A DNA stretch of 64,000 bases from Octopus vulgaris (lineage: Eukaryota), in assembly GCA_951406725.2 (NCBI GenBank), contig OX597818.1, positions 16,430,001 to 16,494,000 on the forward strand, in the 5' to 3' direction. This document shows, in pieces, positions 53,980 through 59,900 of this stretch. Position 1 is the stretch's first letter; each line of letters begins with the position of its first letter. A program made the position numbers.

Positions 53980-56900
53980 CATATATATGTATGTATATAT
54001 GTATGTATGTATGTATACACATATATATATATGAGTGTGTGTGTGTGCCCATATATACAGACATACAAAAACACTCACGACATGCAGACATATACACGTC
54101 TACCTATGTAAATACATTCCTACCCCCTTTATACTAAGTGGCTAGAAGAATACCACATGAAACAGTTGCTCTAGTAAGCGGGGCCTTATCTCTGTAAGTG
54201 GGGTCAATGTGCAATAACACCCGCGAAAGTTTTCATAACGATGTGCCTGCTCTCTTGATGACCTCATATACCAGCTAGTATCTGCCATCTGTGATATCTA
54301 ACTGTTAGCACTCCTTTCTGAAAGTTGTTTGCAACTAATATACTCAGAGAGCATTGTCGTTATCTAGGTTATGTATGTATATATTCATATATGTATATAT
54401 ATGCGTGTATATAAATATGAATGTATGTATCTATGTATTTATGTCTGTTTTATTTAAAGCCATTAACTCAAACTCAAGTTATTATTGTGCAGACCAACTA
54501 TCTTATCGCACATTTAGTTTAATCAAGAAAACGAACAAAATTTCGTTTTCGTGTTTGAGAAGTGACTCGCTCAGAAAAGGTAAGAAAACAATTCTTACTA
54601 TTGTTATTGCTGTTGTTGTGGTCACCGTCGTTGGTATTGTTGCTATTGTTTAGCTGAAATGTAACTTTGAACAAGTAGTTCTTTTGTTGACCCCGAAAAA
54701 ATAAGCCGACCTCAGTGGAATTTGAAAATAGTATATAAAGGCAGACAAAAACACTACAAAGCATTTTACCCGGCATGCAAACAATTCTGCCAACTTTCTG
54801 CCGCCAGCCTATTAAAATAATGAAATTATTTCCAATATTAATCCCACTTGCAGAAAGACTGCCCTCCGGGTGGTTTTCTGCTAGCCACTTGACAATATTT
54901 TCACATTGATATTTTCAGACGCAAATTTTTTTGGACACAAAATTCCAATGTGATATTTGTGTAATAATGAAACCAAACTAGGAGTGTTGCTTAGTAAATA
55001 TTTCTTCCAGTAATTTATCGTTGTAATATATCTCTCATTTAAAGAAACTTCAAGGTAACCCAACTACGTTTAGCGTGCTGGAAGTAGCAGCGATCACATG
55101 CTTATTATTGGAAGGCTTATAGCGTTCCAAACAGCCACCAACAAAATCTCTTCTTAATTTATTAAAAAATGTATGCCGGTATATTAAGAAATTTTCATTT
55201 TATCAAAAATATTCATTTAACAAACTCTGGAAACTGATATTAACATAAGCCTCAAAGTTAATACAGCTATTTTGTCTAATAGCATTCATTCATTCAATAA
55301 ATAATTTTTTTACATTACGTATATAGAATAAACTGTAGGATTTGCAAATAGCGAATTAAAACTTGAAATGAAAATATTGAAATGAATATATATCAAATTA
55401 TCATCAATGAAAATAGAGACGAGAGAGAGTGAGAGACTGTTGCAAATGAAAATGGAAAATTTCACCTGTAACGAATATTGTTTATTAAACATTAAAGTCT
55501 ACTCTGGATATTCAAATCTGTAAAAACACTTGTAGTTCAAATATTAGATAATCTTCAGAAATCAAAATTACAGGAAATTTCTTGGAACATGAATTTGTAA
55601 AAAATTCCAGATGGTCAAGCCTTTAATAATTGCTTTCTTTTAGTAACTGTTACACACATAATTAATAAATAACTATCTTCATTATGATATATATACATCC
55701 ATAATTTTAGTTCAAATATCACTTGATTCAACTGATATAATATTTTACTATTTTGATAAAACTGGACTAATCTTCAACTAGGAACCATCCAATACCGTGT
55801 AAAATGTATATTTCTTCTGTTCGTTCTTTCTTTCTTTCATTCTTTCTTTCTTCCTTTCTTTGCACTCAAAGAAATCACAATAAAAATTTCAAGAGGAAGT
55901 GTCAAGAGATTGATATGAAAATATACACAGCATGACTATGAACGAAAGCATGATTAAAGAATAAACAAAACTAAACAAGCTACAAGACAGTTACCTTTAG
56001 TTTTGAATAAATATTTTCCATTCTAAATAGTTACGGAATAAGGAAAATGAAATTAAACCTCCATTAATTTATATGTTCAATTTTTCTTTATTACAGAAAA
56101 CGAAACATGGCTGTCATGCAGATGGTAACAGCACCTCTTTTATCAGTCATCCTTATTATTTCTCTCACATCACTAAACACATATGCAAAAGAACACAGAA
56201 ATAATTGTACAACTGAAATTTCTCCCACTGTCATTAAAAATTTAACTCGTTTAGTAAGATCAGGCAAACAAGTTTTCAATTTTGAAGTCCATATAATTGA
56301 TAAAAAAATTGATGGCCTTCTCAATCCTGTGCCACTAGATTATTTTGCAAATGCGAGACGTTTCACATGGATTCCAGATGAACCAGATGGTTTAGTAATG
56401 TATAAAAATGTCCTCTTTGACTTTTCAATTCGCTCATTTAATGTATTAGACGCTTACATTGCTACTCCAAGTATTGATATCGATATGAATTGTGGAAAAC
56501 AAAATGTTCAGCGATACGATGTAATATATTCGATTTTCGAGCAATTAAAGAGAATCGTATTTATCGATGAAGCGCAGATGGGAGAATCTGGATATATGTG
56601 TTTCTTTATAAATTTGTCGCACGACATGCAGAAGAACAGTCCTTATACGTTATTAGCGTACAGAATATTGGGTATTTATCGTGAGATACTGAAGAACTAT
56701 TGTTGTGAACTACATAAAAATGATAATACTACTTATGAACCAAAATACATTTGTTCTGGAAATACCATTGAAAACAGTATGTTTGTCAATTGTGCAAATG
56801 TTGTTGGAGCAGTTCTGTTGGCCATATTTCCATTGTATATCAGGTTTATATCAAAAGCTAAATTACCTCCGTATTCCTGTAACCAGCCACAATCAGGTAA

Positions 56901-59900
56901 CGAGGAAGTGCATTTGGAAACTCTACTCTCATCACCAAATTCAAATGAACCTAACCAGCAACAATCAACTAACGAGGAACTGAATTCTCGAAATGAAGAC
57001 ACATCGCCGAATTCCCTAGAACCTAACCAGCAACAGTCAACTAACGAGAGATTAAATTCTCAAAATGAAGACACATCGCCAAACTCCCTAGAACCTAACC
57101 AGCAACAATTACCAAACAATGAATATCTATGTAAATACGCATTGCCAGACAAATCAGAATGGATTAGTATACAACATAATATTTACAGTTTCTCTCATTT
57201 TTTATATTGGTTGTTTTGTTTTCATCATTCGACTTTGTGTGTTTCGAGACTAAGAAGAGGTATTCTTATTTTGCTTTCTCTCTCAGTAATTCTTCTAGAT
57301 CTTTTAATGTATTACTTATATTTATATGAAACGGTGACAATATTTTTACATGATCGCATTCCATTGGGTTATCGCTCGTTCATTCTAGGAATCCAGAAAA
57401 ACTATGAACTTTCAGATGGTTCTGTTTTGGGTCCCTTTTTGGGGATAATCAGCTACATAATTTTTAACTTTATCCTGTTTGTTCTTCCCAGTCATGTAAG
57501 TGAGATTATCGCTGAAAGTATATTAGATAAAAAACTCAAAGAAGATTCTTTTTCTACACTTCAGGGTTATGATCGACTCCTTGCAATAATTAAAGTTAAA
57601 GTTTTTACTGCTACGGACCCATATTTCTGGAAATCTATATTTGTTAAGTGGATTACGCGTATACGTAAAATGTGGACTATTTTCTGCAAGAGCAATATTT
57701 TTATAAAATTTATATTATGTTTGCTTCCTATTTTGGCTACAATTTTATTTGTTGTATTTTTTATCTGTGAATTACTTCTCCGCCTCGTTTATTACGGAAT
57801 CCCATTCATATATTTGATTCTAACTTTACCATTAAGTTATTTCAAAAAATATATTTTACCTCTAATGAAGAAAAATATATGTCCTTGCAAGTGTCATGAT
57901 GAAATTTTATCATTGCCGTCATTGCCGTTTTTTATATTATGGGCATTTGCTTCAGGCTATGTATTTCTTATGAGTTTTCAAATCATTTGCACTTATGTAT
58001 TTTCAATAGCTATTGCAATGCTTGCTAAACCTAATACTGTCGGTGGTATATGGTTTGTTGCCATGTTTTTCGTTCACGCTTTTACAGTTATGAACGCTAT
58101 TCAGGAACATTATAAAGGGATACTAGTTCAATCAATAAAGTTTACTGAAACTATAAAACCAAATTTAGTTCAGTTAAAATATAAAGAGGAATACATTGAT
58201 GCCAAATTGTTTGAAGCAATCGTTAACGAGTATTTTCCTTTAAGTTACGAGATTGGTAAAGCCATTATAAAATTAATTCTAATCGTATCTTTTTTCTTTG
58301 CTTGCAATAACATAATAAATCGAAAGGATTTGCATCTATCAGCATTCACACGGATTGCTTTGATATTGATGACTTCATGGATGCCTAATGTATTGTCGAA
58401 AATGAATGCTAAATTTCATTTTGATACGTCTCTGTCACACAAAGTTATTCACACAATTTATGAATTTCCAAAAGGAAATGAATCCAATTGAATTTACGAA
58501 ACTATTAACATTTTCCCAAAAATATAATTATTCCAATATTCCAGAAATTATTCCATCAGTTTTAACTACTTTGTATAGTAATCTGGTGGATTTCACCTGA
58601 TTTCTACATCCTTCGACTCTCTTAGCATCATCACCGTTCACACCTTCCTTACTACATTAATTTCGACTACTGACTCCAGTGGTAATTGCATTGAGCCTCT
58701 TTTCGATAAAAAGCTGAGCTGTTCAATATCCGACGTACGCCGAACCACTTTCTAATGAATGCATTGCACTTTTTCTCAATGATTTGGACTCGTGATAGTG
58801 CCACTTCGTATATTAAAAGTGGCCACGAAAGTTGCGGATATAAGCCGAAATGTAAGCACCTTAGTTTGCTTCCCTAGTAGCTTCGAATCAACTGTTAGTC
58901 CACTCCTGGCTTGTTTCATGATCTGCATCCCACGACTCCTATCTGACAATGTCCCAGCGTATATATGCCCCAAGCTCTTAAATGGTTCTTCCTAATCTCT
59001 TGGAATGCTTTCTCCAGCTATTCTAAATTTTACTTTTATCTTGCACTATTCTAATAAGTGTCAGACTACGCGACTCTTTTACTCTGAATCACATTCTTTA
59101 TCACTATCAGCTCGTAGCTCCAAGGGGGACTCTGCATGATTTGCATATCTATCGACAGAAGTGGCAGGGCATACATGAAGGCCTTCTTAGGTGATTGTAT
59201 ATCGGGCATTTGTTCCGAAAAGTTTCTCACATTCAATTTATCATTTAAAATTAGCAACTTACTGCAAAACTTAATATAATGTTTTGCTTCTGCTCATTCT
59301 AAATCTTAATCTTTATCTTTCTTAATCTTCAAACTTTATAAACCCATTTTACTGCAGTCTCCTTTATAGGGCTATTATATCAACGTTACTAAGTATTAAT
59401 TTTCAATCTATACATCTAACCAACTTCTTATTATATGACACGTTATTGTAATTATACTTGGACATACTGAAATTTTAAATTTCAAATTTATTTTTCTATA
59501 TATTCTATATTTTCTTTATTTTACATATCTTCAATGCAGTTCATAAATTTTTAAATCACTTTTCTGAACTCCAGTTCTCTGCTTTTACCTATAAGTATTC
59601 TGGGAATCGTTGACCATTTTGAGAATCTTTAGTCGAGATACACCGACTTGTTATATATTGCTTTTTCCTTACTTCTTCTTCAGCTTCTTCTTCTTCTTCT
59701 TCTTCTTCTTCTTCTTCTTCTTCTTCTTCTTCTTCTTCTTCTTCTTCTTCTTCTTCTTCTTCTTCTCCTTCTACTTCTCCTTCTTCTTCTTCTTCTTCTC
59801 CTTCTTCTTCTCCTTCTTCTTCTTCTCCTTCTTCTTCTCCTTCTTCTTCTTCTTCTTCCTCTCCTTCTTCTTCTTCTTCTTCTTCTTCTTCTTCTTCTTC

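Follow-up and report, generated by a model that had tools for sequence, protein, structure and literature searches.

What is encoded by the longest open reading frame in a 64,000-nucleotide stretch of the Octopus vulgaris genome (contig OX597818.1 of assembly GCA_951406725.2, positions 16,430,001 to 16,494,000 of the forward strand; hereafter the window, with positions counted from its first nucleotide), and why does it lie beside two broken versions of itself? The frame in question, here called copy 3, is an intact single-exon coding sequence (CDS) at 56107..58491 on the plus strand, which runs from ATG to TGA and specifies 794 amino acids (aa) plus the stop, as had been claimed in an earlier note that read the locus as one of a locally amplified family of receptor-like multi-pass membrane proteins. 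We find that copy 3 is very probably a genuine gene of an undescribed membrane protein family that undergoes birth-and-death evolution. For the more complete statement, which adds a ligand-coupled mechanism to the gene and the family, our confidence falls a little short of even. The frame of copy 3 is open for 807 codons from stop to stop, and the runner-up frames in the window reach 456 aa (in copy 2, one of the broken versions) and 442 and 415 aa (both reverse transcriptase). Given a six-frame stop frequency of 0.0555 per codon in the window, which contains no N and has a G+C content of ~27-43%, the chance of 807 open codons is ~1e-20.

A word-indexed protein search recovered 18 proteins at E<=1e-3 and a profile search 22 at E<=1e-5; all named relatives (22 of 22 in the profile search) are octopod proteins, from Octopus sinensis, O. 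bimaculoides, O. vulgaris and Argonauta hians. The closest database proteins of copy 3, from O. sinensis and O. vulgaris, share 91-97% identity with it over the best local alignments, and colinear full-length relatives are found in three other octopod species. In each of three Octopus species the members are distributed over two chromosome-sized contigs, and the family is therefore present at a minimum of two locations. An exhaustive search of a representative library yielded 31 proteins at E<=1e-3, 11 of them at E<=1e-10 and 9 at E<=1e-30. The distant relatives are 16-29% identical to copy 3, similar in length and built alike: all 17 distant homologues inspected have a segment at ~120-300 that resembles the first transmembrane (TM) helix of copy 3 (TM0, described below), followed by 5-7 hydrophobic blocks, and in 11 of the 17 a hydrophobic segment at the N-terminus also passes the threshold used; of the rest, no fewer than two (P0029 and P0033) seem to be truncated at this end. 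It is because of the 807 open codons, the colinear relatives and the 31 relatives in the representative library that we regard copy 3 as a genuine gene.

What does this gene encode? Hydropathy and a full-length AlphaFold2 model computed on a 33-sequence alignment (mean predicted local distance difference test, pLDDT, 74.4; predicted template-modeling score, pTM, 0.72) agree on the layout of the protein, whose elements are all on the plus strand. The first is a signal-peptide-like N-terminus (residues 1-27, 56107..56187), which is assigned on hydropathy (2.17 over residues 2-20) rather than on a cleavage-site prediction and has no fixed fold in the model (pLDDT <50). It is followed by an ectodomain of 195 aa (residues 28-222, 56188..56772), delineated by the AlphaFold2 model, cysteine conservation and sequons, which assumes an alpha/beta fold; when folded alone it reaches a pLDDT of 86.9 and a pTM of 0.83, with the alpha/beta part spanning residues 34-221. 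This domain contains four N-x-S/T sites (N33, N45, N169 and N207) and six cysteines (C34, C129, C165, C199, C200 and C216, in the contexts NNC, NCG, MCF, CC and ICS), all six of which are also present in copies 1 and 2. Next comes TM0 (helix 225-249, 56779..56853), identified by both hydropathy and AlphaFold2, in which P242 is kept in 32 of the 33 rows of the family alignment, and then a disordered polar linker (residues 256-349, 56872..57153; pLDDT <50) that is predicted to be cytoplasmic. Tandem Repeats Finder detects a 72-bp (24-aa) repeat within the linker (56880-57109; 3.2 copies, 82% matches), which is much longer in the O. sinensis protein P0001, with many more units, and absent from most paralogues; this region is a length-variable disordered segment.

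The remainder of the protein is an eight-helix membrane bundle (residues 377-767, 57235..58407), again supported by hydropathy and by AlphaFold2, whose pLDDT is mostly 75-92 here. Its helices occupy residues 377-405, 443-459, 533-564, 566-588, 595-640, 642-683, 712-739 and 746-767; soluble helices (464-527) and a beta hairpin (688-698) are inserted between them, and a further C-terminal helix (774-793) follows. In the middle of helix 533-564 lies Glu555 (codon 57769..57771), a position at which all 33 members have an acidic residue (E in 32, D in 1). Basic stretches flank the linker, namely KAK after TM0 and SRLRR before TM1, the first helix of the bundle. Because these fit the well-established positive-inside rule and the N-x-S/T sites fall in the ectodomain, the sequence predicts that the ectodomain is outside and the linker and C-terminus inside. 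A two-copy prediction for the bundle (residues 346-794) scored 0.00, in a run in which the family alignment was unused and the partner's own fold was uncertain. Thus, the architecture sketched in the earlier note, with a signal-peptide-like start, a ~200-aa ectodomain bearing six cysteines common to all three copies, one TM segment and a polar loop, is recovered in each of these parts, and its "8-9 further segments" resolve into eight further membrane helices plus the C-terminal helix.

This build is shared by the family as a whole, whose members combine a signal peptide, a ~195-aa six-cysteine alpha/beta ectodomain, TM0, a disordered linker of variable length and an eight-helix bundle. Conservation was assessed on an alignment of 33 rows (A2) and one of 27 rows (A3), beside an octopod profile (A1). 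None of the six ectodomain cysteines varies among the 11 octopod proteins; across A2 the six are found in 27, 31, 32, 32, 31 and 31 rows, in the order given above, and five of them are unchanged throughout the 27 rows of A3. P461, P566 and Y669 are present in all 33 rows of A2, and several further positions are nearly fixed (R381 in 31 rows; R384, G428, G442, P443, F507 and W508 in 32 each). The conserved motifs of the family are a YYGxP turn, GGP and NPxFW, and its best-conserved block is the unit formed by TM1, the following loop and TM2, with a mean identity of 34.2% as against 24.7% for the ectodomain.

Does this protein belong to any described family? Pfam returned no significant match for copy 3, 8 octopod proteins, 10 distant proteins or the 33 rows of A2, the last of these in a search extending to E of 10. 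Ten Pfam families were each touched by only one of the 33 members (best E 0.029, all below the cut-offs), and there are no receptor, channel or transporter families among these ten. The absence of G-protein-coupled receptor (GPCR), Cys-loop and transporter motifs, which had been noticed by eye, therefore extends to the Pfam seven-transmembrane (7TM), ligand-gated channel and transporter models, none of which has a significant match in the 33 members. Searches of PDB chains, likewise to E of 10, gave 0 matches with phmmer and 0 with the A1 profile, and the A2 profile gave 5 chance matches to a lipase (E=2.1). Comparison of the AlphaFold2 models with PDB using Foldseek produced no confident structural match, either for the full model (best E=1.7; 0 of 127 matches at E<=0.001) or for the ectodomain (best E=0.16, TM-score <=0.21). 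A language-model and structure atlas, queried with the whole protein and with residues 346-794 among its named clusters, provided no usable match. A viral origin was also considered and dropped, the full model having a best E of 0.83 and 0 of 100 matches at E<=0.001 against BFVD. In the literature, no mention was found of six LOC identifiers of family members (supplementary tables lying outside the search), and publications on STRA6 in octopus and on cephalopod-specific novel transmembrane families contained nothing on the family by title or abstract. Hence the suggestion that the family is undescribed is in agreement with the lack of any significant Pfam, PDB sequence or profile, or Foldseek match. 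What is novel is the protein family together with both its folds, for which no described relative was detected with the searches made; a tandem cluster with pseudogenes is in itself an ordinary mode of evolution.

The two broken versions of copy 3 were located by tblastn of its open reading frame against the window. Both are minus-strand paralogues that align in three pieces each with 53-60% amino-acid identity to copy 3 (nucleotide identity 76-78% for copy 1 and 74-85% for copy 2), and the three copies lie within 47 kb. Copy 1 (11918..14191, minus strand) is clearly a pseudogene. Stops interrupt its frame at query residues 110, 185 and 524 (near positions 13864, 13639 and 12674), the frame changes twice from one tblastn piece to another, and a garbled stretch hints at an additional local frameshift. 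Its nucleotide homology to copy 3 spans 10681-14422 and extends past the CDS, by 243 bp upstream and ~1 kb downstream. Copy 2 (33674..35869, minus strand) is broken more lightly, with no internal stops in its two long pieces and two frame changes, both of them single-base deletions in T runs (34766-34761 and 33868-33864). Its original start region is lost, the homology to copy 3 beginning 30 nt past the start codon, and an in-frame ATG lies further up the open frame. A reverse-transcriptase fragment adjoins its 5' end (35931..36191, plus strand; RVT_1, E=4.4e-9, residues 57-143 of the open reading frame 35763-36257). Copy 2 may be recently dead, or it may be intact apart from homopolymer assembly errors. 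We also observed that copies 1 (~12078-12082) and 2 (33868-33864) shift frame at the same place, in the T-rich codons of a conserved SFFFAC motif; this may reflect either two independent events in a slippage-prone run or a weakness that the assembly has at both sites.

How old is this cluster? In a quick maximum-likelihood tree of 25 rows, in which each break in copies 1 and 2 was bridged with an X, copy 3 pairs with O. sinensis P0001 (support by the SH-like approximate likelihood-ratio test, SH-aLRT, 100), copy 1 with the intact O. bimaculoides P0003 (SH-aLRT 100; 73% identity) and copy 2 with the intact O. bimaculoides P0005 (SH-aLRT 98; 79% identity), and all three window copies fall inside one 7-row clade (SH-aLRT 99). 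As each copy is sister to a different orthologue, the three are old paralogues that had already separated before O. bimaculoides split off, with gene death differing between species, rather than the products of a recent burst. The tree supports birth-and-death evolution with species-specific gene death, the pseudogene copy 1 having an intact sister, P0003, in O. bimaculoides. The family has undergone an expansion in octopods, and its turnover proceeds through tandem duplication and the death of genes. In this regard the earlier note fared well on the main point, since a cluster of intact and dead paralogues is what the 47 kb contain, with copy 3 intact, copy 1 dead and copy 2 possibly affected by the assembly; its "locally amplified" holds for the clustering of three copies and not for a recent amplification.

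Is copy 3 complete as a gene? Its CDS is intronless, as had been described, but this probably does not hold for the gene as a whole. A polypyrimidine tract with AG at 56081..56096 (plus strand), a likely 3' splice acceptor from its sequence, has its AG ending 10 nt 5' of the ATG, and the O. vulgaris model P0004 has 10 additional N-terminal residues and then RKRN before a start identical to that of copy 3. Because the acceptor precedes the ATG at the very point where P0004 has its extra residues, the CDS is probably one exon with a 5' exon ahead of it, the use of the acceptor at this locus being a prediction from sequence. A separate observation concerns the gene models of P0001 and P0002 (both O. 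sinensis) and P0004, each of which omits an internal part of the CDS, with a common acceptor before an IAMLAKP motif; the model of a copy-2-like paralogue, P0018, also omits internal coding sequence and rejoins at the acceptor before IAMLAKP. In copy 3 the in-frame sites matching the P0001, P0002 and P0004 models are GT donors at 56895, 57127 and 57718 and an AG acceptor at 58005. These omissions might represent either real splicing or gene models that bridge assembly defects.

What might such a protein do? From its architecture we tentatively propose a receptor, transporter or channel mechanism, a proposal that we hold to be less likely than not, and one far less secure than the existence of the gene and its family. 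The protein would reside in the plasma membrane, or face the lumen of the secretory pathway, with its glycosylated ectodomain outside and its linker and C-terminus in the cytoplasm. The ectodomain would bind a ligand on the same side of the membrane as the TM1-TM2 loop (IPLG...G...GGP) and the YYGxP turn, and together with this conserved outer loop it could constitute a ligand-binding or gating unit above the bundle. The bundle, with the always-acidic Glu555 in its helix 3, might then pass an ion or small molecule or relay a conformational signal, and the variable linker could act as a cytoplasmic tether or regulatory region. On this view the binding of a ligand would be coupled to transport, conduction or signalling, and the protein would represent a new type of transporter, channel or receptor. 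A more specific form of this proposal, in which the nine-helix family would serve octopods at the cell surface as receptors or receptor-channels that respond to ligands from the environment, from microbes or from conspecifics, with neither fold having a solved relative and the buried glutamate in a conduction or coupling site, is speculative and in our estimate unlikely as it stands.

Several observations weigh against this proposal or against copy 3 being a good representative of it. The ratio of nonsynonymous to synonymous substitution (dN/dS; Nei-Gojobori), calculated for copy 3 against each of the other two copies, is high: against copy 1 it is 0.79 over the whole sequence, 0.65 in the ectodomain and 0.87 in the bundle, and against copy 2 it is 0.55, 0.35 and 0.62, respectively, all of these being upper bounds because the partner copies are broken and inflate them by neutral decay. 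The ectodomain is as conserved as the bundle (64.9% versus 65.0% mean pairwise identity among 11 octopod proteins). This equal conservation, taken with the lower dN/dS of the ectodomain (0.35-0.65, as against 0.62-0.87 for the bundle, between these in-window paralogues), is unlike what is predicted for a diversifying recognition receptor, so that the analogy with chemosensory or immune receptor families that was first drawn for this locus finds no support in the divergence of the domains. The conserved residues are mostly prolines, glycines and aromatics, and hence structural more than catalytic. An inverted internal repeat of the transporter type was not detected in the bundle by hhalign, whether its halves or four helix blocks were compared (probability <=0.5%). 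Copy 3 itself is also atypical: it lacks 15 residues that are found in all 10 other octopod rows, and it has L441 where 31 of 33 rows have G, N432 where 28 have S, D504 where 29 have N, and H657 where 29 have Y. In the quick tree its stem branch, at 0.27, is longer than any other within the octopod clade. The same 15-residue deletion is found in O. sinensis P0001. On these sequence features copy 3 is the most derived member, and it may have undergone a change of function or a relaxation of constraint, with the ancestral activity changed or partly lost.

The alternative that survives best is an intracellular protein of the endoplasmic reticulum, Golgi or endolysosome with a lumenal domain and a housekeeping or biosynthetic role, for instance as a membrane-embedded enzyme or cargo receptor, which we judge unlikely yet deserving of consideration. 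A signal peptide, a lumenal domain and a multi-pass bundle are also the build of trafficking families such as the nonaspanins and GOLD-domain proteins, and both the equal conservation of ectodomain and bundle and the structural character of the most conserved residues would suit such a role. Housekeeping membrane proteins, however, are usually single-copy and slowly evolving, whereas the closest between-species pairs of this family share only 73-80% identity, its members occupy at least two chromosome-sized contigs per species, and one of them is a pseudogene here although another species retains its closest relative in intact form. Furthermore, no conserved constellation of His, Asp or Ser residues resembling an active site is visible in the 33 rows, and no Pfam family of such intracellular proteins was matched.

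A second alternative, which we hold to be improbable, is that the copy 3 family is a very divergent branch of STRA6/STRA6L that takes up a lipophilic ligand. STRA6 takes retinol from a carrier protein and passes it into the membrane; it has a short N-terminus and a carrier-binding extracellular loop, a build from which the large N-terminal ectodomain and tight helix-helix turns of copy 3 differ. The idea arises from UniRef, which names P0005 and P0007 (both O. bimaculoides; 2 of the 18 matches in the first search) "Receptor for retinol uptake STRA6", but this name is reproduced by none of the sequence, profile or structure tests. The Pfam family RBP_receptor is matched by 0 of 33 members at E up to 10; the single-sequence and profile searches of the PDB set, which we presume to include a solved STRA6 chain, returned no STRA6 chain at E up to 10; and no STRA6 entry is among the best 50 of the 127 Foldseek matches of the full model to PDB. 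The number of helices does agree, with TM0 plus eight in the AlphaFold2 model and nine TM helices in the STRA6 protomer according to a review (PMC12953553), whereas the arrangement of the loops appears unlike that of STRA6. Other reports place STRA6-like genes outside vertebrates, in amphioxus (PMC3184775), and attach a STRA6 label to an Aplysia transcript or gene (PMC8195618), but another gives STRA6 as absent from an annelid (PMC5821490). A very remote relationship to STRA6 may exist.

The weakest alternative, that the family is functionless here, with copy 3 a leftover frame of a decaying remnant or of transposon cargo, draws on the two broken copies among three, the 15-residue segment and four near-fixed residues missing from copy 3, the retroelement sequence between and against the copies and the whole-length dN/dS of 0.55-0.79, and is made very improbable by the 807-codon frame with its chance of ~1e-20, by the architecture and six cysteines kept down to 16-29% identity, by the ectodomain dN/dS of 0.35 against copy 2, and by the homology unit shared between copies (the CDS with its 243 bp upstream and ~1 kb downstream), which contains no transposase. 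The reverse-transcriptase frames are separate insertions, lying outside this unit or inserted at the 5' end of copy 2, and a transposon cargo gene is accordingly not what these observations describe, though no search was aimed at terminal repeats. We therefore retain the reading of copy 3 as a genuine member of a new membrane protein family.

The surroundings of the three copies contain further features. A large part of the 5.5 kb that immediately precedes copy 3 (50062-55519) is duplicated in inverted orientation at 1..6792 (minus strand), in several blocks of 89-96% identity that meet the window edge. By its position, this duplicate hints at a younger fourth copy on the minus strand, which might be situated ~0.6 kb outside the window, past position 1. 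Two loci of the copy-3 type that are nearly identical to each other, P0001 and P0002, are present in O. sinensis. Between the family copies lies the remnant of a non-LTR (long terminal repeat) retrotransposon (27709-30697, plus strand; RVT_1 E=4.3e-18, zf-RVT E=6.3e-6), which is split over adjoining frames and broken by long poly-E, poly-K and poly-R runs. An open frame of 150 aa at 62885-63337 (plus strand) may resemble Tc1/mariner-type transposases in sequence, with no Pfam match at E<=0.001. Long microsatellite or low-complexity tracts at 4716-5174, 8013-8498, 42340-42904, 49543-50153, 50618-51316 and 59589-60152 are read as open frames of 150-230 aa that are spurious, such as poly-I, poly-L, poly-E and (YI)n. 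Finally, the O. vulgaris database model P0018 (1010 aa) contains both a family member and gelsolin-type repeats, the latter from precomputed Pfam matches (PF00626 and two others). Two genes were probably merged in this model, which would make a gelsolin-like gene a neighbour of the cluster in O. vulgaris.

Cephalopod genomes contain many lineage-specific gene arrays of unassigned function. The present family would add to these a large, confidently foldable protein with two domains that lack a Pfam or solved-structure match, and thereby a new membrane-protein architecture. If its members were indeed surface receptors or channels, they would be new candidates for chemotactile, immune or reproductive recognition in octopus. 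Independently of this, the locus offers a clean case of species-specific gene death in which the turnover of receptor-like genes can be studied. The automatic "STRA6" label on two database entries, being unsupported by the tests, could mislead surveys of the retinoid pathway in molluscs.

Among known systems, the nonaspanins (TM9SF, Pfam EMP70) and the seven-helix proteins with a GOLD domain (TMEM87, GPR107/108) provide an architectural analogy, as they combine a signal peptide, a lumenal or extracellular N-terminal domain of a few hundred residues and a multi-helix bundle. Their Pfam families are matched by 0 of 33 members, and no solved member is among the Foldseek matches listed; in addition, they are conserved and low-copy, whereas the octopus family is fast-evolving and clustered. 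The likeness to STRA6/STRA6L would lie in a multi-pass build with a predicted nine helices, the N-terminus out and the C-terminus in, and the difference lies in the 195-aa disulfide-bonded ectodomain and the disordered linker after the first helix of the octopus family. The cephalopod nicotinic-receptor-like chemotactile receptors form lineage-expanded clusters, and the expanded GPCRs of cephalopods are such clusters too (PMC6408891). From both of these the present family is set apart by an unrelated fold, with no 7TM or Cys-loop match, and by an ectodomain that is not hypervariable. It resembles them in its clustered genes with few or no coding introns, its octopod-specific expansion and the pseudogenes that stand beside its intact genes.

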